This document shows, one piece after another, positions 1,738 through 10,665 of a stretch of 10,665 bases of DNA. Where the stretch lies: UHGV virus genome UHGV-2171516; one strand, given 5' to 3'. The translations under genes were made by a program, and so were the position numbers. A model generated the notes under the pieces. The model was not told where the DNA came from. It did not search any database and saw only the letters and a list, made by a program, of their open reading frames with translations. Every line of letters starts with the position of its first letter. Position 1 is the stretch's first letter. This DNA is from a virus.

Positions 1738-2706
1738 ATGAAAACAGCAGATGCAGCGAAAGGCCGCTGGCCTGAAATATTAGAGCACTTCGGTCTGCCG
1801 CCGATAACCGGAAAAAATCACTTCAAGGGTGAATGCCCGGTATGCGGTGCACGTGGCAAGTTCCGAATTGACGACCGCGACGGTGCAGGAACGTGGATCT
1901 GTGTATGTGGTAGTGGCGATGGTATGAAACTTGTCACCCTGACACAGGCGAAGCCATTTAACGAGATTTGTACCGAAATAGACCGCCTGATCGGTAATGA
2001 TTACCAACGGGTTAAAATCCCGGTAACCAGCAGCGCCACCAGCTTACGCAAACGGGTATTGAGCAAGTTTTCAAAACTGGAGGCACTGCGTGGTACATCC
2101 GGCGCAGCGTATCTTAATTCTCGTGGAATATTCAGTCTTCCTGCTGAGGCGATCCGGTTCAATGCCAGGCAGAGACACAACGGGAGTGTGTTCCAGTCTC
2201 TTTATTCACTTGCTACGGACGATAAAGGGGAGTTGTGCTATCTGCACCAGACTCTGCTTGATGGTGATAAAAAAGCAGATATCGGTAGCAGTGCAAAGCG
2301 CCTCAAATCCCTGCAGGAAGATAACTATTTGGATCACGCTCGTTCTGTAGCTATCCGCATGTTTCCTGTCGCCAGCACTCTGGGTATCGCCGAAGGCATC
2401 GAAACAGCGCTGTCAGCGCACCAGATTTATAACGTGAACACCTGGGCAACCATTAACAGCGGCTTTATGAAAAAGTTTCGCGTACCAGCTGGTGTTCTGC
2501 ACCTGATTATTTTTGCCGACCGTGACGAGAACAGCGCCACCGGGCTGGCTGCGGCTTGCGAATGTGCTCATGCCAATCTGATGGCAAAGAATGACCTGCA
2601 GCGCGTGAGCGTGTACTGGCCGGATCACGATGATTTCAACAATATGCTCATGAACGGTGATCAGGTTCGAGAGCTGGTTTTCCATAAGAAAAAGGCGGTT
2701 GCGTAA
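1738..2706 (+). CDS. Phage DNA primase (P4-alpha-like zinc-binding ribbon plus Toprim domain)
   Basis: 322-aa ORF. N-terminal CPVCG...CVCG zinc ribbon, Toprim signatures AEGIETALS and FADRDEN (DxD). ATG 1738 follows the helicase stop directly (TAAgATG), suggesting translational coupling. Confidence 0.75.
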   Translation: MKTADAAKGRWPEILEHFGLPPITGKNHFKGECPVCGARGKFRIDDRDGAGTWICVCGSGDGMKLVTLTQAKPFNEICTEIDRLIGNDYQRVKIPVTSSATSLRKRVLSKFSKLEALRGTSGAAYLNSRGIFSLPAEAIRFNARQRHNGSVFQSLYSLATDDKGELCYLHQTLLDGDKKADIGSSAKRLKSLQEDNYLDHARSVAIRMFPVASTLGIAEGIETALSAHQIYNVNTWATINSGFMKKFRVPAGVLHLIIFADRDENSATGLAAACECAHANLMAKNDLQRVSVYWPDHDDFNNMLMNGDQVRELVFHKKKAVA

Positions 2707-3563
2707 TGCGTACTGATAATAACGAACATAAAGCACTATTCACCATCCCGACGGCAGCGTACAGCTCCGCCCTCGCAAACATCAAGCCCCTGCCAGAGCA
2801 ACGGAGAATCACCGGGCATAAGCAGACTGATGCTTATCTTTGGGTGCTGGAGGTTATCCGTCTGAACGAACCCGCACATCTGGATGCTGCTGAGGCTGCG
2901 CTGGTGAAAATTAAAATTTCCCCAAAAGAGGCTCAGGAACGCTATTCGCGTTATCTGCTGGCGAATGGTTACGAACCTTTCCAGGTTGCGTTCGGCATCA
3001 TCGGCATGGATAACCCTGCGCAGGTTATCAGGAACGCCCGGGAGAACATCAAAAAAGCGGCATCAGTCAGGGCTACGTTTGGTAGCTATGAAGCAGCGCT
3101 CGAAGATGTGGAAGCAGAGCGGGTCATCAGGTCTTCCCAGAAATTTATCAACGATCATCTCTGGGGCTGGACTGCGGCAGAGAAAAAAGCCGGAAGCATT
3201 GGCGGCAGCCGCATGAACGAAATTGATGAACAGCGTCGGGCATTTGTTGATGGATATCGCGATGTGCTGCCTGAGCCTTATACGCTGTCTGATGTTGTTC
3301 GCGAGTTCGTTTACTGGGACTGGCTCTACAGTGTTCGCCACACTGCAACTAAAGAACAGGGCGATGAGTTTGGTTACTCTGAGCATCACGAATCGGTATA
3401 TGACCGCGAGCGCTACCTTGAAAAATTGCTGGCAACCATCAAACCGGTGACACGCGCTGAAGCCGTGGAGGTGTGCCGCTGGTTTCTGGCAAGTGGTAAG
3501 GGTGAATGCATGGAAGACGACGGTGCAGCGGTCATTCTCAATCTGGTTGGGGAGTGTGAATAA
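2706..3563 (+). CDS. Hypothetical phage protein, function unknown (sits where the nin region lies in lambdoid phages)
   Basis: 285-aa ORF in codon-like frame. Start overlaps the primase stop (TAATG) and its stop overlaps the next start, so it is part of the coupled operon. No motif I recognise. Confidence 0.6.
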   Translation: MRTDNNEHKALFTIPTAAYSSALANIKPLPEQRRITGHKQTDAYLWVLEVIRLNEPAHLDAAEAALVKIKISPKEAQERYSRYLLANGYEPFQVAFGIIGMDNPAQVIRNARENIKKAASVRATFGSYEAALEDVEAERVIRSSQKFINDHLWGWTAAEKKAGSIGGSRMNEIDEQRRAFVDGYRDVLPEPYTLSDVVREFVYWDWLYSVRHTATKEQGDEFGYSEHHESVYDRERYLEKLLATIKPVTRAEAVEVCRWFLASGKGECMEDDGAAVILNLVGECE

Positions 3564-4378
3564 TGAAGCTTGAGGCATCGCTAAAATACTTCAGTCCTCA
3601 GGGAATGTATATCGGCGACGATGTGAAAGGAACCTCTCCGGAACGTCTTACAGGCACCGATGTTATGGCGGCTATTGGTACCACCAGTAATCGTGAGCGG
3701 TTTGGCCTGGCGGCCTTCTTCGGGAAGGCCGGTATCAGCAAGACTGATGAGCAGATGGCAGTCCAGGCGCTGGCGCGTCACGCGATGGAAATTGCACCGA
3801 AGAATGTGCGTAAAGCAGCTGGTGGTGAATTTGGCTGGTGTATGCTGGTACTGGCTCAGTTTGCTTTTGCTGAGTATTCCCGATCGGCGGCCACCAGCGT
3901 AACATGCCATAGTTGCAGTGGTACCGGACTAACACCCCGTAAGCAGGTCATTCGTAAGGTTTCATACCCATGGGGTAAAGCACCATATTGGGCCAGTCGC
4001 TCCCGTGCTGTTCGACCGTCAGACTGGGAAAGATGGACAGAGGTAACGGAAGTTGTACCAGTCGTTTGCGATGTATGTAAAGGGAAGGGAGTGATAAGTG
4101 CCAGGTGTCGTTGTGGTGGAAAGGGAGAGGTACTGGACCGCAAAGCCACAAGCGAGCGTGGTGTGCCAGTGTTTAAAATCTGCGAGCGTTGTAGTGGAAA
4201 GGGATTCGTATCTATCAAATCAGCTAATGTTCATCGAGCTATTCAAATATACATTCCCGATCTGCACCAGTCTTCATGGTCGCGCAATTGGAAACCATTC
4301 TATGAAAAATTGATTGATATCCTGCATCAAGGTGAGCGGCATGCGGCTAGAGAATTTGAGAAGGCAACGAGTTACTGA
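3563..4378 (+). CDS. Q: Putative late antiterminator Q (phage 82 / QuuQ-like size class) with four CxxCxGxG zinc-finger repeats
   Basis: 271-aa ORF. Last gene before a promoter-like element, a strong terminator and the tRNA cluster, which is the Q position in lambdoid and Stx phages. Four repeats CHSCSGTG, CDVCKGKG, CRCGGKG, CERCSGKG. GGGGAG SD upstream; start overlaps the previous stop. Family assignment is by position and size, not sequence recall. Confidence 0.55.
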   Translation: MKLEASLKYFSPQGMYIGDDVKGTSPERLTGTDVMAAIGTTSNRERFGLAAFFGKAGISKTDEQMAVQALARHAMEIAPKNVRKAAGGEFGWCMLVLAQFAFAEYSRSAATSVTCHSCSGTGLTPRKQVIRKVSYPWGKAPYWASRSRAVRPSDWERWTEVTEVVPVVCDVCKGKGVISARCRCGGKGEVLDRKATSERGVPVFKICERCSGKGFVSIKSANVHRAIQIYIPDLHQSSWSRNWKPFYEKLIDILHQGERHAAREFEKATSY

Positions 4379-4417
4379 TCTGAACAGCTTTGGCGGAGAG
4401 ATTTTTGAGCAACCGAC

Positions 4418-4447
4418 TTGACTTTGCATAAAATTGTCTTGTATCAT
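4418..4447 (+). promoter_or_regulatory. Candidate late promoter (pR'-like): -35 TTGACT 4418-4423, -10 TATCAT 4442-4447, 18-bp spacer
   Basis: Sigma70-like hexamers directly downstream of the Q-like gene, about 40 nt upstream of a strong intrinsic terminator. This matches the lambdoid pR'-tR' arrangement. Not validated. Confidence 0.35.
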
Positions 4448-4488
4448 TTTAATTATGGGGTTTAGCGCCAATATAAAAATTAACACGG

Positions 4489-4512
4489 AACCCGCTTTAT
4501 AGCGGGTTTTTT
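4489..4512. terminator. Rho-independent terminator (tR'-like), usable from both directions
   Basis: 8-bp stem AACCCGCT / AGCGGGTT with TTAT loop, followed by a T6 run on the + strand. It lies 2 nt beyond the stop of the minus-strand gene 4515-5459, so it can also end that transcript. Confidence 0.65.
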
Positions 4513-4514
4513 AA

Positions 4515-5459
4515 TTATGGTAAATTTTCCATAAATTTCTTAAATAGTAATTTGTCTTTATTGCTTACAGATTTCTGAATGTTAAGTAATGCACGTAAAG
4601 GTTTAAGGTTTTCTCTTGTTGCAAAAACCCTGGATTTTTCTAAGCGTTCCTGAGCAAAGTTAAAGCGTTCTCTTAATCTTGAAACCTTTATTCCAAAAGA
4701 CAACACCTCTCTTTCAGTCAATTCATCTGGGGTACATTTGTTTAATTTTTCCAGAACCATTTTTATATCTCTTTCATAAAGAAGAGCAATGTCATAATCA
4801 TTCAGCAAGCATTCAGGGTATTGTATTACCCCAATAAGTTCATTTACGGTTTTGTTTTTGTTGTTAACTTTTGGAGCTGAGTCGCTTGTTTGCTTCTGGG
4901 ACATAATTTCGTCCAGTTCTAGCTCTTCTGTATTTTTTAATCTTGAGCGGAAAACACGCCCATCACCAGAAGCAGCCATCTTTTTCAATGTTTGATAAGC
5001 CGCACGCCCGATGATTTTAGGGTCTTTCATGTCAAGTATTCTATGAGCAACCTCAGTTAGTGATGGACGCCCAGATTCGATTTTGGCTTTGAGTTTGTAA
5101 TAGCTAAAAATATCATCTTTTGCCTCTTTAAGTGCGGTAAGTAAGCGATGGAAATCTGCTTTTCGGCAAAGTTCTATTGCTAAATTATCAAATGCTATAC
5201 CAAAAACATTAGTTCCACATACATGGCCGATATTCGTTTCAAATCCTTCTTTCGTAACTACCAGAAATCCCTTTTTATGCCCTTTGCGGCAATTTGATTT
5301 TCCACATGGAATTTCCTCTGGTAGGTCATCGTAGTAACCAAAAACGTCAGAGAGTTGCTGATCATTTAACTCTAATTTGGGATAGTAAGACTCTCTCGCC
5401 TGAATTTCTGCCCAGTCATTCACGCGAATAAAACTTTCGCCATTCTTGAGAAAAATCAT
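4515..5459 (-). CDS. Hypothetical 314-aa protein on the opposite strand; AT-rich moron, candidate accessory or defence gene
   Basis: Long ORF antisense to the phage backbone, visibly AT-rich against GC-richer flanks. Good SD AAGGA about 5 nt before the ATG (reverse complement of 5457-5470). Flanked by an AT-rich upstream region 5460-5580 and the terminator at 4489-4512. Cysteine/histidine cluster CGKSNCRKGH...HVCG; no family recognised. Confidence 0.7.
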   Translation of the reverse strand: MIFLKNGESFIRVNDWAEIQARESYYPKLELNDQQLSDVFGYYDDLPEEIPCGKSNCRKGHKKGFLVVTKEGFETNIGHVCGTNVFGIAFDNLAIELCRKADFHRLLTALKEAKDDIFSYYKLKAKIESGRPSLTEVAHRILDMKDPKIIGRAAYQTLKKMAASGDGRVFRSRLKNTEELELDEIMSQKQTSDSAPKVNNKNKTVNELIGVIQYPECLLNDYDIALLYERDIKMVLEKLNKCTPDELTEREVLSFGIKVSRLRERFNFAQERLEKSRVFATRENLKPLRALLNIQKSVSNKDKLLFKKFMENLP

Positions 5460-5583
5460 ACTCGTCCTTACTGTGGTTAGATTTAAAGCATATCCATTTG
5501 ATATTTAATCACTATTCTTTTTGTATTTCACCTAAAACGATTTGTTTTCATGTTTAATGTGACTGATGTATCATCACTCCCCC

Positions 5584-5656
5584 AGCCATTTTAGCTAAAT
5601 GATGAGAGCGAGTTATAATCGCCAGGTCGCTGGTTCAAATCCAGCAAGGGCCACCA
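5584..5656 (+). tRNA. tRNA-Ile-like (ileX/ileZ-like) with intact 3' half but degenerate 5' acceptor and D arm; possible pseudogene or fragment
   Basis: 3' portion ATAATCGCCAGGTCGCTGGTTCAAATCCAGCAAGGGCCACCA closely resembles the E. coli tRNA-Ile2 3' half as I recall it (T arm GCTGG/CCAGC, acceptor 3' strand AAGGGCC, discriminator A, CCA). The upstream sequence does not supply a matching GGCCCTT acceptor strand or a clean D stem. The anticodon loop reads GTTATAA (UAU) in my fold. Confidence 0.4.
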
Positions 5657-5663
5657 TCACATA

Positions 5664-5740
5664 CCGCCATTAGCTCATCAGGATAGAGCGCCAGCCTTCG
5701 AAGCTGGTTGCGCGGGGTTCGAGTCCTCGATGGCGGTCCA
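5664..5740 (+). tRNA. tRNA-Arg (anticodon UCG)
   Basis: Hand-folded cloverleaf: acceptor CCGCCAT/ATGGCGG, D stem GCTC/GAGC, anticodon stem CCAGC/GCTGG with loop CTTCGAA, T stem CGGGG/CCTCG (one G-U) with loop TTCGAGT, discriminator T plus CCA. 77 nt. Confidence 0.75.
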
Positions 5741-5754
5741 TTTATCGGCATTCT

Positions 5755-5831
5755 GCGTTGTTAGCTCAGCCGGACAGAGCAATTGCCTTCTAAGCAATCG
5801 GTCACTGGTTCGACTCCAGTACAACGCGCCA
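5755..5831 (+). tRNA. tRNA-Arg (anticodon UCU, argU/argO-like)
   Basis: Hand-folded cloverleaf: acceptor GCGTTGT/ACAACGC, D stem GCTC/GAGC, anticodon stem ATTGC/GCAAT with loop CTTCTAA, T stem ACTGG/CCAGT with loop TTCGACT, discriminator G plus CCA. 77 nt; resembles E. coli argU. Confidence 0.85.
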
Positions 5832-5930: not shown

Positions 5931-6144
5931 AATACCTCACAATTCAGCAAGTTGATGATTGTCTGGCTGTCAGGGATTTTGTTAAAAAAATCCTGCATGG
6001 TGAATCCCCCTGAGCGGAGGGGCGACTGGTGACGGTATAATCTCTGATTATCAAAACGAGAATGACGCGGGTTTAGTGGCACCGGGCTGAACTCACCGGG
6101 AGGCACCCGGCACCATGTGCATGATGATACAGATACGCGGCTTT

Positions 6145-6171
6145 AGCCCCTCTCCGGAGGGGCTTTCTTGT
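6145..6171 (+). terminator. Terminator-like hairpin
   Basis: 8-bp GC-rich stem AGCCCCTC / GAGGGGCT with TCCG tetraloop, then TTCTTGT. Confidence 0.45.
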
Positions 6172-6175
6172 GGGC

Positions 6176-6202
6176 AAAAAAAAAGCCCGAGTGGGTTCGG
6201 GC
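6176..6202 (-). terminator. Rho-independent terminator oriented for the minus strand
   Basis: On the + strand an A9 run followed by stem GCCCGA / TCGGGC with loop GTGGGT. On the minus strand this is a hairpin followed by T9. Confidence 0.5.
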
Positions 6203-6257
6203 AACAGCATGAGATATACATTTTTATAATCGAATGGATTTTAACCAGAATTCATAA

Positions 6258-6384: not shown

Positions 6385-8367
6385 ATGACATTTAAACACT
6401 ACGATGTGGTCAGGGCGGCGTCGCCGTCAGACCTTGCGGAGCGACTGACACAAAAACTGAAGGAGGGGTGGCAGCCATTTGGCAGTCCGGTGGCCATCAC
6501 GCCCTATACCCTGATGCAGGCCATTGCGGCGGAAGGTGATGTCACCACACCGGTGGTGGTGCAACCGTCGGGTGATGGTGGCGCTGTTATCAGCACCACC
6601 AGCGAACCGGAATATTACTTTGTCATTGCGCTGGCCGGGCAGTCCAACTCGATGTCTTTTGGCGAGGGGCTGCCGCTGCCGGATACGTATGATCGTCCTG
6701 ACCCGCGTATTAAGCAACTGGCGCGTCGCAGCACGGTGACACCGGGCGGTGCGGCCTGTGCATATAACGACATTATTCCTGCAGACCATTGTCTGCATGA
6801 TGTGCAGGACGTGAGTAATCTGAATCACCCGAAAGCAGACCTCAATAAAGGGCAGTATGGCTGTGTGGGGCATGCCCTGCATGTGGCCAAAAAACTGCTG
6901 CCGTTTATGCCTGCCCGTGCGGGGATCCTTCTTGTCCCGTGTGGACGTGGCGATTCGGGATTTACTGCGGGAGCAGAGGGCGCGTTTAATGAGGCGTCGG
7001 GTGCGACAGCGGGCTCTTCCCTGTGGGGGGTGGATAAACCGTTGTATCGTGACCTGGTCAGCAGAACGCGTGCAGCCCTGAAGAAAAATCCGAAAAACGT
7101 GCTGTTGTCGGTGATCTGGATGCAGGGGGAAAAAGATGTCAGTTCGGGGAGACATGTAGAGCACAATGCACTTTTTCTTGCCATGGTAAATAAATACCGT
7201 GCAGACCTGGCAGATATTGCAGACCAGTGTATTGGCGGGACAACGTCCGGCGTCCCGTGGATTTGCGGTGACACCACGTACGACTGGAAGGCGAAGTATG
7301 CAGTGCAGTATGAGGCGGTTTACGGAGGCTATAAAGGCAAGGCGGCGCAGAATATTCACTTTGTGCCGTTGATGACGGATGAGCATGGTGCGAATGTGCC
7401 GACAAACGAGCCGTCAGAAGATCCGGACATTATCACGGCGGGATACTATGGTGCCGCGTCACGCAGTAATGGTAACTGGACGACAGCCGATCGTAAAACG
7501 CACTTCAGCTCCTGGGCGCGAAGAGGCATTGTTTCAGATCGGCTGGCAGGAGAGATACTGGTGCGAGCCGGGCGTTTGCTGCCGTTCCTGAGCGGGCAGT
7601 CTGCACCGCTGGCGACCACGCCAGCCTCCACGGGGGATGCACAGTCTGGCTCTGCGGGTCCGACGCAACAGCAGGGTGCAGGTACTTCTGCAGGCGGTCA
7701 TACTGAAGCCGTAACAAGAATGGTGGCCGGATATGATGCGAACAGTGGCAGTGGTGTATGGACAGAGCAGCAGTGGAATGCGTCCGGTGGTAAAGGCACT
7801 GTGACGGATGACAGTGGCAGGAAGGCGCTGCGACTGGAAAAACAGCCGGGTAAACTGACCTCCTGGAAGATGTTCCGTACTGTTGCGGTGGAGGAGGCAA
7901 AAAATCTTCTCAGTAAGGGGGGGGAAATTGCCGTGCGGTTTAAGATCCCGGAGGGTGTCGAACTGGTTAACGGTCAGTTTGTCTTTGGTCTGTACTGGCC
8001 GGTGTCGCAGTGGGCGTCAGGCGCGACAGCAAACAGCATGCTGGCGTCCTTCTTCCTTCAGACGGATGCATCAAATCTGAATCTGATGTACCACAAGGGG
8101 GAGTCGAATGCGCAACTGGGCACATTTGGGGCATTTGACCATAACTGGCATACAGTTGTTTTCCGCTTTGCGGGAAATAACAGCGAAAAAGTGGTGCCGG
8201 TGATTGATGATGCAGAGCAGTCTGCGTTTGACCTTGTGATGTGGACAAATGATGGCTTTACAGCAGATACGCTGACGCTGACAGATATCACGGGGGCAAA
8301 AGCGACGTATCCGGTACTGCTTGATACGGTCACAGTCAAAGTTAACGAAAGCCGGGCATCATCATAA
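6385..8367 (+). CDS. nanS-p: Prophage-encoded sialate (9-O-acetyl-N-acetylneuraminate) O-acetylesterase, NanS-p / YjhS-like (SGNH/SASA esterase with N-terminal DUF1737-like and C-terminal lectin-like domains)
   Basis: 660-aa ORF. N-terminal MTFKHYDVV... segment typical of phage NanS proteins, SASA-type block ALAGQSNSMSFGEG, Gly/Ser/Gln-rich linker, long C-terminal domain. SD GGGAGG at 6375-6380. Same place as the yjhS homologue between toxin locus and lysis genes in Stx phages. Confidence 0.85.
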   Translation: MTFKHYDVVRAASPSDLAERLTQKLKEGWQPFGSPVAITPYTLMQAIAAEGDVTTPVVVQPSGDGGAVISTTSEPEYYFVIALAGQSNSMSFGEGLPLPDTYDRPDPRIKQLARRSTVTPGGAACAYNDIIPADHCLHDVQDVSNLNHPKADLNKGQYGCVGHALHVAKKLLPFMPARAGILLVPCGRGDSGFTAGAEGAFNEASGATAGSSLWGVDKPLYRDLVSRTRAALKKNPKNVLLSVIWMQGEKDVSSGRHVEHNALFLAMVNKYRADLADIADQCIGGTTSGVPWICGDTTYDWKAKYAVQYEAVYGGYKGKAAQNIHFVPLMTDEHGANVPTNEPSEDPDIITAGYYGAASRSNGNWTTADRKTHFSSWARRGIVSDRLAGEILVRAGRLLPFLSGQSAPLATTPASTGDAQSGSAGPTQQQGAGTSAGGHTEAVTRMVAGYDANSGSGVWTEQQWNASGGKGTVTDDSGRKALRLEKQPGKLTSWKMFRTVAVEEAKNLLSKGGEIAVRFKIPEGVELVNGQFVFGLYWPVSQWASGATANSMLASFFLQTDASNLNLMYHKGESNAQLGTFGAFDHNWHTVVFRFAGNNSEKVVPVIDDAEQSAFDLVMWTNDGFTADTLTLTDITGAKATYPVLLDTVTVKVNESRASS

Positions 8368-9311: not shown

Positions 9312-9821
9312 ATGAATAAACAATACGAACTGGTTGTTAAAGGGATAAATAATTACCCGGATAAGATTACTGTTACTGTAGCGCTGGAAACGGGTGGGTA
9401 TACGTCACTGTTGTTGCCAAATGTGGTGATTGATCTTGATCGTGTTGAAGGTGCCCCGCTGGAGTTTTACGAAGCTGAGGCGAAAAAGAAGGCGAAGCAG
9501 TTTTTCATGGATATTGCTGCCGGGTTATGTGAAGGGGATGAACAGTCACAGGAAAAGTGCCTTTGTTCCGAAGATCGGTATACCATACAAATTAACAATG
9601 CATATAACACGATACTGTCAGAAAAAGATGATATCGAATCACGCATTGAAAAACTGGAGAATTGCGTCGTTGAACTGAATAAAAAACTGTCGACGCTGAT
9701 GCCTTCTGAAGATGCAAAAAAACGCCGCGATGAGCAGTTCGCGGCGTTTTACGATTATTGCATTGAAGTTACTCGCAGGAATTTTGTGAAGGCTTTTGAG
9801 GAGAGTAAATCTCTTCAGTAA
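9312..9821 (+). CDS. Hypothetical 169-aa soluble protein inserted between holin and endolysin
   Basis: ATG 4 nt after the holin stop, with SD GGGGAGAG (9298-9305) lying inside the holin 3' end. AT-richer than the flanking lysis genes. No transmembrane segment; coiled-coil-like stretch SEKDDIESRIEKLENCVVELNKKL; no family recognised. Confidence 0.6.
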   Translation: MNKQYELVVKGINNYPDKITVTVALETGGYTSLLLPNVVIDLDRVEGAPLEFYEAEAKKKAKQFFMDIAAGLCEGDEQSQEKCLCSEDRYTIQINNAYNTILSEKDDIESRIEKLENCVVELNKKLSTLMPSEDAKKRRDEQFAAFYDYCIEVTRRNFVKAFEESKSLQ

Positions 9822-10029
9822 GCTTAATGGCGGACGCTGCAATTAATTCAGGAAGGTCCGCAAGGTCATCTGTCAGTGGGAATGATGAAAAATCGGCGGC
9901 AGTTCTGTTAAGAATTGCTTTAACTAATTCCTTTTCCTCATCCGGCAACACGTTGATTAGAGCTACGACTGCTTGCCTGAGTGCGATTAAATCAGCAAAA
10001 GTTTGTTTTGGTAGATTTGGATAATCCAT
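9769..10029 (-). CDS. Hypothetical small acidic protein (86 aa from the internal start), convergent with and overlapping the 3' end of 9312-9821
   Basis: Track ORF 9769..10101 on the minus strand. I prefer the internal ATG at 10029 (MDYPNLPK...) because it has an SD (GAGGTGA) while the 10101 start has none. The 3' end overlaps the + strand ORF by about 53 nt. Could be spurious. Confidence 0.35.
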   Translation of the reverse strand: MDYPNLPKQTFADLIALRQAVVALINVLPDEEKELVKAILNRTAADFSSFPLTDDLADLPELIAASAIKLTEEIYSPQKPSQNSCE

Positions 10030-10140
10030 AGTCACCTCTGTGTTTATCAGATTGACATACCCTGGCCAGTGCCCACCACTGGCGGGGTGAAGGCTTAACA
10101 TATCCAGGGATTCGGAACCGATAAATCCTGATAAATATCC

Positions 10141-10665
10141 ATGAACGCAAAAATCAAATACGGCCTGTCAGCTGCTGTTCTGGCGCTGATTGCTGCAGGC
10201 GCGTCTGCTCCTCAGATACTTGACCAGTTTCTGGACGAAAAAGAGGGTAACCACACAACGGCATACCGTGATGGTGCAGGTATCTGGACCATCTGCCGTG
10301 GTGCCATCATGGTGGATGGCAAACCTGTCGTTCCGGGCATGAAGTTGTCGAAGGAAAAATGCGACCAGGTTAACGCCATTGAGCGTGATAAAGCGCTGGC
10401 GTGGGTGGAGAAAAACATCAGAGTGCCGCTGACCGAACCCCAGAAAGCGGGGATCGCGTCATTCTGTCCGTACAACATTGGTCCCGGTAAGTGTTTCCCG
10501 TCGACGTTTTACAGACGAATTAATGCTGGTGATCGCAGGGGAGCATGCGAAGCGATTCGCTGGTGGATTAAGGACGGTGGCAGAGACTGCCGTATTCGCT
10601 CAAACAACTGTTACGGTCAGGTATCCCGTCGCGACCAGGAGAGTGCGCTGGCGTGCTGGGGAATT
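10141..10665 (+). CDS. R: SAR endolysin (phage lysozyme, T4/P1-Lyz-type catalytic E-D-T), 3' end beyond the window
   Basis: Open frame from ATG 10141 to the window edge (175 codons, no stop), so absent from the ORF track. N-terminal signal-anchor-release segment YGLSAAVLALIAAGASA, then catalytic spacing E...D...T in EGNHTTAYRDGAGIWTICRG. In-frame stop at 10132-10134 fixes the start. SAR endolysins pair with pinholins. Confidence 0.85.
   Translation, partial: MNAKIKYGLSAAVLALIAAGASAPQILDQFLDEKEGNHTTAYRDGAGIWTICRGAIMVDGKPVVPGMKLSKEKCDQVNAIERDKALAWVEKNIRVPLTEPQKAGIASFCPYNIGPGKCFPSTFYRRINAGDRRGACEAIRWWIKDGGRDCRIRSNNCYGQVSRRDQESALACWGI

Follow-up and report, generated by a model that had tools for sequence, protein, structure and literature searches.

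Lambdoid phages carry morons, extra genes that have their own promoter and a deviant base composition, are present in some related phages and absent from others, and are expressed by the prophage, such as bor and lom, rexAB, and sieB of phage lambda, gp15 of HK97, and the Shiga toxin (Stx) genes downstream of pR'. The stretch of DNA analysed here, 10,665 nucleotides (nt) of virus genome UHGV-2171516 and hereinafter the window, is the early-right and late-leader segment of a lambdoid prophage, and its open reading frame (ORF) ORF314, on the minus strand at positions 4515 to 5459, is an accessory gene (moron) that lies in antisense orientation within the leader of the Q-dependent late operon. 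ORF314 shares with the described morons the status of an extra gene, the deviant composition, and the presence/absence pattern, and a conserved promoter footprint suggests that it is likewise expressed by the prophage. It occupies the Q-to-lysis slot; in sister phages, this slot also holds stx2e or stx2f at a distance of a few hundred bases. Unlike the stx genes, ORF314 runs counter to the late transcript and immediately adjoins the terminator tR'; unlike the lambdoid morons, to none of which it has sequence or fold similarity, it belongs to a family of 550 sequence clusters that also occurs on plasmids and genomic islands.

Two other described systems are close to ORF314. In phage lambda, the antisense promoter paQ drives convergent transcription against Q and the late genes. 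Like that from paQ, transcription of ORF314 would be directed against Q and the late promoter from a downstream promoter, but the product of the ORF314 unit is a conserved 36-kDa protein, and its transcription would end mostly at tR'. Tai (tail assembly interference) of the Tai/Ati pair of phi80 and other prophages is, as is proposed here for ORF314, a single defense protein that a lambdoid prophage encodes at a moron locus. The Tai locus lies upstream of the packaging module, Tai is countered by the late-expressed Ati, and the Tai prophage avoids self-inhibition in late development through late (Q-dependent) transcription (PMC11364771). ORF314 differs in having no partner, and its proposed self-protection is antisense silencing. 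Identity with Tai was ruled out, the locus being different and a tblastn search of ORF314 in phi80 giving no match.

An antisense accessory gene in the late leader

The features of the ORF314 locus are as follows, with positions numbered on the window:

3563-4378, plus strand: antiterminator Q gene (PF03589, E 4.6e-51), the last ~171 nt of which (from ~4207) lie within the low-G+C module
4200-5599 (about): low-G+C module with the Q C terminus, pR', tR', ORF314, and the ORF314 promoter (G+C content of 0.25 to 0.45 per 100 nt)
4418-4457, plus strand: late promoter pR', predicted from a 10/12 consensus match and conservation
4487-4516, plus strand: intrinsic terminator tR' (hairpin at 4487-4510 plus U-run)
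4515-5459, minus strand: ORF314, with an ATG start, encoding 314 amino acids (aa)
5465-5469, minus strand: Shine-Dalgarno sequence AAGGA, 5 nt before the ATG at 5459-5457
5503-5531, minus strand: predicted sigma-70 promoter of ORF314, from a phylogenetic footprint
5585-5653, plus strand: degenerate tRNA, ileZ-like, with TAT at the anticodon position (Rfam tRNA, 32.6 bits), at the right boundary of the low-G+C module

ORF314 thus lies between Q/pR'/tR' and the tRNA cluster and is convergent with Q, as the initial annotation had described. Its close homologues, which come from Escherichia coli, Kluyvera, Ewingella, and metagenomes and form 13 clusters at 90% identity, share identities of 59 to 98% and are all 313 to 320 aa long. 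The ratio of nonsynonymous to synonymous substitution rates (dN/dS) of the homologues, calculated by the pairwise Nei-Gojobori method, was 0.03 to 0.11 in the eight unsaturated pairs. By the same method, the ratio was 0.03 to 0.12 for the N-terminal 100 residues and 0.045 to 0.14 for the C-terminal part, and no diversifying selection was seen on the C-terminal part in these pairwise estimates. ORF314 is a bona fide protein-coding gene under strong purifying selection. The initial annotation had named homology to a routine structural or regulatory phage protein, or frameshifts and a lack of purifying selection in related prophages, as grounds for giving up the moron interpretation; no such homology was found and purifying selection is strong, and the interpretation therefore stands on both counts.

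The G+C content of ORF314 is 0.365 (0.305 at third codon positions), compared with 0.51 to 0.555 (0.53 to 0.58) in the neighboring genes. The lower G+C content had been noticed before, and the tract proved to be wider than first stated, including the spacer between Q and ORF314 and the region upstream of ORF314 as well. Within Q, the G+C content is 0.530 for positions 3563 to 4207 and 0.415 for positions 4208 to 4378.

The expression signals of ORF314 were examined by aligning the 220 nt 5' of the start codon in 12 loci, the coding synonymous sites of which are saturated. The AAGG core of the Shine-Dalgarno sequence is invariant in all 12 loci. The AT-rich upstream region (G+C content of 0.31 for positions 5500 to 5599) contains a conserved footprint predicted to be a promoter, consisting on the minus strand of a -35 element, GTGAAA (5531-5526), a 17-nt spacer, and an extended -10 element, TG (5511-5510) plus TTAAAT (5508-5503). 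The pattern xTGAAA, 17-nt spacer, and TG(A/G)TTAAAT is kept in 10 of the 12 loci, the window included; of the two exceptions, L036 carries TGGATGAAT as a variant, and the block is absent from L003. A generic promoter scan of the window missed this promoter. Both the Shine-Dalgarno sequence and the AT-rich upstream region had been pointed out in the initial annotation, and both are confirmed.

The pR' elements on the plus strand are a -35 element, TTGACT (4418-4423), an 18-nt spacer, and a -10 element, TATCAT (4442-4447), and a conserved block, TAATTATG (4450-4457), spans the predicted pR' start. The -35 element, the spacer motif TTGCATAAA, TATnAT, and the block are kept in the orthologous and paralogue loci despite saturated synonymous sites, which is consistent with promoter activity. 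The GC-rich tR' hairpin is a canonical intrinsic terminator on the plus strand (-14.8 kcal/mol, U6, z -4.7), its U-run overlaps the stop codon of ORF314, and its stem sequence differs among orthologous loci with the pairing retained. The two features are the expected pR'/tR' pair of the late operon. In lysogens, pR' is constitutively active and its transcription is terminated immediately downstream (PMC7547250). A bidirectional terminator had been proposed at this site. On the plus strand it is clearly tR', but on the ORF314 strand the hairpin is less stable (-12.7 kcal/mol) and precedes UUCCGUGUUAAUUUUU, in which the U-tract is interrupted, so that only half of the proposal is well supported; a terminator scan made no call on ORF314's own strand. 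As ORF314 lies antisense between pR'/tR' and the tRNAs, Q-modified late polymerase would have to traverse the entire gene in the antisense direction before reaching the tRNAs, the NanS-p gene, and the lysis genes, which lie beyond it on the late transcript.

The ORF314 cassette (type A) is present in 22 of 5,426 complete E. coli genomes, and a paralogue is present in 15. One deposited phage, vB_EcoS-611R1, has the cassette, and the ORF is annotated as "hypothetical protein" in all such records. Literature searches with the ORF314 accessions and the PHROG identifier found no paper, and papers on Stx-phage architecture and hotspots do not mention ORF314. In STEC276, the cassette is 94.5% identical in nucleotide sequence (dN of 0.009), with the order Q, ORF, tRNA-Arg, and stx2e. 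Homologues with identities of 59 to 69% are convergent with Q and lie between Q and the holin gene in at least seven different lambdoid backbones, which differ in their replication, lysis, and terminase modules, and the Ewingella homologue adjoins a Q of another family, PF06323. The paralogue (306 aa, 25% identical to ORF314, E 4e-26) occupies exactly the same slot and lies between Q and stx2f in strain 2015C-4136CT1. All phage-borne close homologues and the paralogue are convergent with Q, and in each of them only a few nucleotides lie between the stop codon and tR'. These comparisons identify the slot as a genuine cargo hotspot of lambdoid phages, in agreement with the classic cargo position that the initial annotation had recognized, and they indicate that the ORF314 family is a long-standing resident of it, since the slot members have diverged to 59 to 69% identity and the paralogue to 25%. 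Divergence this extreme on near-identical backbones is typical of conflict genes.

In three further genomes with a related Q, the slot holds nothing but tRNAs and the remnant of a methyltransferase. No family member was found in phages such as Fels-1, whose Q genes are 60 to 80% identical, and overall the gene is missing beside Q genes of 60 to 84% identity (L051, Fels-1, and others). As related phages lack ORF314, the gene is accessory cargo, and an obligatory Q partner was ruled out by the same phages. With its predicted promoter, deviant composition, and presence or absence among related phages, ORF314 appears to be a moron in the sense of Hendrix and Juhala, and the earlier description of a self-contained opposite-strand gene in a lambdoid cargo slot is supported.

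Nucleotides 1 to 644 of Q are 98% identical in prophages that have a different Q C terminus and the paralogue in the same slot. The recombination breakpoint lies inside Q at about position 4206, where the G+C content falls from 0.53 to 0.415, and beyond it the C-terminal ~57 residues of Q, the pR' region, and the antisense ORF all differ. This pattern indicates that the Q C terminus, pR', tR', and the ORF recombine as one block. Strict co-variation of the ORF allele with the Q-binding region of pR' was ruled out by locus L007, in which a type-A ORF is combined with a paralogue-type pR'. Independent acquisition of ORF314 had been suggested from its base composition. Acquisition of the ORF alone is too simple, because the low-G+C block spans the Q C terminus and pR'/tR', the breakpoint lies inside Q, and the family has long resided in the slot.

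Inactivated copies were also encountered. The copy at IMG/VR locus L023 (6001-6945) has the nonsense mutation W16stop, and the phi467 paralogue (L048, 7001-7875), which adjoins stx2f, is disrupted by two frameshifts when compared with the intact 306-aa form.

The ORF314 protein and its family

The initial annotation could place no motif in the protein and proposed structure and defense-model searches, which were performed here. Neither Pfam nor NCBIfam gave a match for ORF314 or a consistent match for 72 relatives. PADLOC-DB v2 (5,027 models) gave no match for ORF314 at E<=1, and the 72 family members gave only three single weak matches (E>=0.0015). No match among Protein Data Bank (PDB) sequences was obtained by phmmer, the full-length profile, or the N-terminal-domain profile (best E of 0.1 to 0.46, coiled-coil noise). 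The sole match was to PHROG 7003, a family of unknown function (E 4.1e-118, residues 1 to 313 aligned with positions 1 to 308 of the 309-position profile). AlphaFold with a deep alignment gave a model with a predicted local distance difference test score of 96.1 and a predicted template modeling score of 0.85, for which no fold relative was found among solved or viral predicted structures. In the model, residues 1 to 86 form a small beta domain (C-x4-C knuckle, beta-hairpin, and helix N terminus), and the remainder is helical with one beta-hairpin insertion. The protein is soluble and basic (isoelectric point of 8.8; family median of 8.4) and has no transmembrane segment.

Conservation and the order of secondary structures suggest that residues 1 to 86 hold a treble-clef-like CCHC zinc site formed by C52, C57, H61, and C81, which are 99 to 100% conserved in the 72 distant relatives. 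Residues Y43, C52, C57, G64, G78, C81, G82, and N284 are invariant in these relatives; H61, G53, T75, N76, F86, and F90 are at least 90% conserved; and the core motif of the family is CGLxxCHxPHxxGYLVxTxxGxETNIGxxCGKxxFG. The Cys/His cluster pointed out initially is thus retained in its four putative ligands, but H79, in the sequence HVCG, is conserved among close relatives only and is not a conserved ligand. Treble-clef and WRKY-GCM1-like zinc fingers combine a knuckle, a beta-hairpin, and a ligand at a helix N terminus. ORF314 resembles them in its C-x4-C knuckle, beta-hairpin, and helix-N-terminal ligand, with the spacing C-x4-C-x23-C (C52, C57, C81), and it differs from them in its CCHC ligands, the His being only 3 residues past the knuckle, and in matching no profile or fold of these classes; the modeled resemblance may serve as a lead. 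The conserved polar residues include no enzyme-like invariant acidic/basic set and are unlike an active site. An HNH or beta-beta-alpha-metal nuclease was rejected, as there is no HNH family match and no fold match and only H61 and N76 are conserved polar residues, H61 being more plausibly a zinc ligand.

An exhaustive profile search of 1.84 billion representatives, clustered at 50% identity, retrieved 550 clusters at E<=1e-3 and 292 at E<=1e-10, nearly all of which are about 300 aa long and align end to end. The family occurs on phages, plasmids, and genomic islands, and its members combine the putative N-terminal CCHC zinc module with a faster-diverging helical C-terminal part. Genome loci were collected from reference genomes with a degenerate DNA pattern derived from the core motif, which yielded at least 120 loci; a family member is encoded at 120 of 120 of these. 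In the 80 loci for which a host is listed, the hosts are nearly all Beta- and Gammaproteobacteria. No neighbor or partner gene is conserved across the 120 loci listed, and the protein therefore probably acts alone.

The 248 nonredundant nearest ORFs include mobile-element markers, namely, integrases, DDE and Tn3 transposases, a resolvase, RepB, Mu-like head genes, and CI-like repressors. About 20 of these 248 neighbors (within two genes on either side; 8 to 9%) match defense models, some of them generic domains, a proportion that has no background control. They include two CBASS cyclases with a four-transmembrane effector and CapP, Gabija GajA (E 8e-236), PARIS AriA, AbiTii, HEPN, restriction-modification types I and II, PD-T4-2, PD-Lambda-2, NsnA, and the AbiJ-like gene described below. 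These neighbors are suggestive of an association with defense islands.

Full-length but distant homologues (23 to 28% identity) occur on plasmids. Those of Vibrio vulnificus adjoin ParA, DUF2913, Hok/Gef, an anti-restriction protein, and an ArdC-like zincin; that of Burkholderia vietnamiensis lies about 600 bp from the TraI relaxase; that of Pseudomonas putida adjoins DUF4942 and a Y-family polymerase; and that of a Pseudomonas aeruginosa megaplasmid adjoins a DNA methyltransferase. Another homologue, 63% identical, has PsiA and ParE in its vicinity. Hok, anti-restriction, ArdC-like, PsiA, or TraI relaxase neighbors were found in four to five plasmids. Methylophaga thiooxydans DMS010 has at least seven family copies on a repeated element (L067, L068, L070, L091, L108, L112, and L125), and the Methylophaga copies whose upstream flank is covered (8 to 9 loci in the cluster) lie 32 nt downstream of an orphan D12-class Dam-like DNA methyltransferase. 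In a Klebsiella phage, a 28%-identical member is an antisense moron adjoining the immunity region.

Some members have coupled genes. In three loci (one of them L132, 3623-4423), the family gene is overlapped at its 3' end by an AbiJ-like abortive-infection gene (AbiJ_NTD5 plus Abi_C) of the same orientation, which may be a two-gene arrangement in a subclade. Small coupled ORFs with no Pfam match accompany distant members in Klebsiella phage ST13-OXA48phi12.2 (L041, 4686-6073) and a Burkholderia plasmid (L042, 5723-6921), one of 144 aa lying downstream and another of 93 aa upstream with a 4-nt overlap.

Possible functions of ORF314

ORF314 may be a lysogen-expressed single-protein anti-phage defense or exclusion factor that is switched off by head-on late transcription, a reading that is favored tentatively and given somewhat less than an even chance. 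In the lysogen, host RNA polymerase would transcribe ORF314 constitutively from the extended -10 promoter toward pR', and the protein would act by itself in anti-phage defense or superinfection exclusion, the conserved zinc module providing a constant binding activity (for nucleic acid or protein) and the variable helical part the target specificity. Upon induction, Q-modified polymerases would pass tR' and cross the gene head-on over its full length, and polymerase collision together with antisense RNA would silence ORF314 and spare the phage's own late development. Action as a single protein is proposed because no partner gene is conserved; the silencing by late transcription is deduced solely from the geometry of the locus, and conservation together with secondary structure suggests the putative "sensor" role of the C-terminal part.

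The evidence for defense is indirect and consists of a machine-learning prediction and a moderate excess of defense genes among the neighbors of the family; the purifying selection, the expression signals, the position and accessory status of the gene, and the divergent alleles on near-identical backbones also agree with this reading. Table S10 of the DefensePredictor study lists WP_096111884.1, the near-identical 314-aa STEC276 allele, as a "Predicted novel defense gene" (cluster WP_000576620.1), with a mean log-odds of 4.67 against a strict cutoff of 4 and with no remote-homology or Foldseek hit (PMC13092281). In the supplementary files consulted, the 42 validated systems do not include the allele; the study gives a validation rate of 45% for the tested units, rising with score, and it includes G+C content and neighbors among the classifier's features (PMC13092281).

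Several points weigh against a defensive role. The reported score is barely above the cutoff, where the validation rate falls, and the prediction is not independent of the composition signal described above, because the classifier uses G+C content and neighborhood. No family member matches a known defense family with significance among the 5,027 PADLOC models, and the defense matches among the nearest ORFs are few and partly generic. The genes around the plasmid homologues encode Hok, anti-restriction, ArdC-like, and PsiA proteins, orphan methyltransferases, and relaxases, contexts that fit an anti-defense or establishment role equally well.

The plasmid contexts lead to the reading of ORF314 as a counter-defense or establishment factor, which would be made on entry from a constitutive host-type promoter and neutralize a host barrier (restriction, SOS/RecBCD, or other immunity) for phages and plasmids alike, its expression in the lysogen persisting merely for want of repression. 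Leading regions of plasmids concentrate anti-defense genes (PMC11541004), and the plasmid surroundings of the distant homologues in Vibrio, Burkholderia, and Pseudomonas are typical of such leading regions or of establishment modules; the homologue near PsiA and ParE and the Methylophaga copies that follow an orphan Dam-like methyltransferase point the same way. These contexts are ambiguous, however, because plasmids also have defense genes near partition and toxin-antitoxin modules, and the chromosomal copies adjoin defense systems rather than anti-defense genes. The protein is basic, unlike DNA-mimic anti-restriction proteins, the orientation of the gene opposes the early and late operons, so that it would be silenced in lytic growth, and the classifier's listing calls the allele defensive. 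A counter-defense or establishment role is considered unlikely. The position of the gene also raises the possibility of a brake on the late operon, in which convergent transcription into tR', pR', and the 3' end of Q would keep the lysis, Stx, and NanS-p genes silent in lysogens, perhaps with a contribution from the protein as an antagonist of Q or of the antiterminated polymerase. The convergence with Q and the contact of the stop codon with tR' recur in the paralogue and in every close homologue borne by a phage, the Q C terminus and pR' are exchanged along with the module, and read-through into pR' and Q is plausible because the terminator is weak on the ORF314 strand. Most of the family, however, resides in places without Q, such as plasmids, islands, and the immunity region of a Klebsiella phage, phages with 60 to 84% identical Q genes manage without ORF314, and the combination in L007 excludes strict co-variation with the Q-binding region. 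A purely cis-acting antisense role would, moreover, leave the purifying selection on the whole protein unexplained, and a brake on late transcription is regarded as very unlikely.

A further role in lysogenic conversion or host physiology, for example, that of a DNA- or RNA-binding regulator of host genes, would be compatible with a zinc module and a helical domain in a basic protein, and the other cargo of the slot (tRNAs, STnc100, AsxR, NanS-p, and Stx) serves host or virulence physiology; one UniRef entry reads "Transcriptional regulator," which is a source label only. Family searches found no helix-turn-helix or other known DNA-binding domain, however, there is no conserved host-gene neighborhood, and divergence on near-identical backbones with a patchy distribution over mobile elements is more typical of conflict genes; such a role is likewise considered unlikely. 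As a protein, ORF314 has no known relatives in sequence or fold, and as an element it belongs to a known class, the prophage moron, and is a candidate for single-gene immunity. If it is defensive, a sizeable family without a curated-family or known-fold match would join the bacterial immune repertoire, and a simple transcriptional route for avoiding prophage autoimmunity would be at hand, in which a defense gene beside Shiga toxin genes is disarmed at induction. It is possible, though doubtful, that ORF314 founds a widespread single-protein immune family of proteobacterial mobile elements with a fold unseen among solved and viral predicted structures and with expression hard-wired to lysogeny. 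If ORF314 is instead a counter-defense or establishment factor, it would link the entry strategies of phages and plasmids. Effects of convergent transcription would bear on the toxin output of Shiga toxin-producing E. coli, because ORF314 lies inside the transcript that drives Stx2e/Stx2f, NanS-p, and lysis. A single 945-bp gene that brings its own promoter, and for which five point mutants suggest themselves, makes the family a concrete and cheap experimental target.

Other features of the window

The remaining features of the window are as follows:

78-1736: DEAD-box helicase
1738-2706: Toprim primase
2706-3563: 285-aa protein
5664-5740 and 5755-5831, plus strand: two tRNA-Arg genes (anticodons TCG and TCT), downstream cargo of the late operon
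5966-6175, plus strand: small RNA STnc100 (Rfam, 158.7 bits)
6180-6232, minus strand: small RNA AsxR ("anti-stx2"; Rfam, 63 bits, exactly at the threshold)
6385-8367, plus strand: NanS-p-type sialate O-acetylesterase of 660 aa (DUF1737, SASA, and DUF6645)

The NanS-p gene is followed by a DUF1378 gene and then the holin gene. It is the first protein-coding late gene, at a position downstream of the site that stxAB occupies in Stx phages. The STnc100 and AsxR matches lie between the tRNAs and nanS-p, and the prophage itself has no stx gene. The degenerate tRNA at 5585-5653, directly 5' of the two tRNA-Arg genes, was not called by ARAGORN on the window and is labeled "tRNA-Pseudo-TAT" in phage vB_EcoS-611R1; an intact CAU tRNA occupies its position in orthologous loci of other genera.

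A second low-G+C tract lies at 9312-10150 and may be another moron-like insertion. Directly 3' of the holin gene, it contains a DUF1327 gene (9312-9821; G+C content of 0.418), the 3' end of which is overlapped by a convergent 110-aa ORF on the minus strand (9769-10101; G+C content of 0.441).

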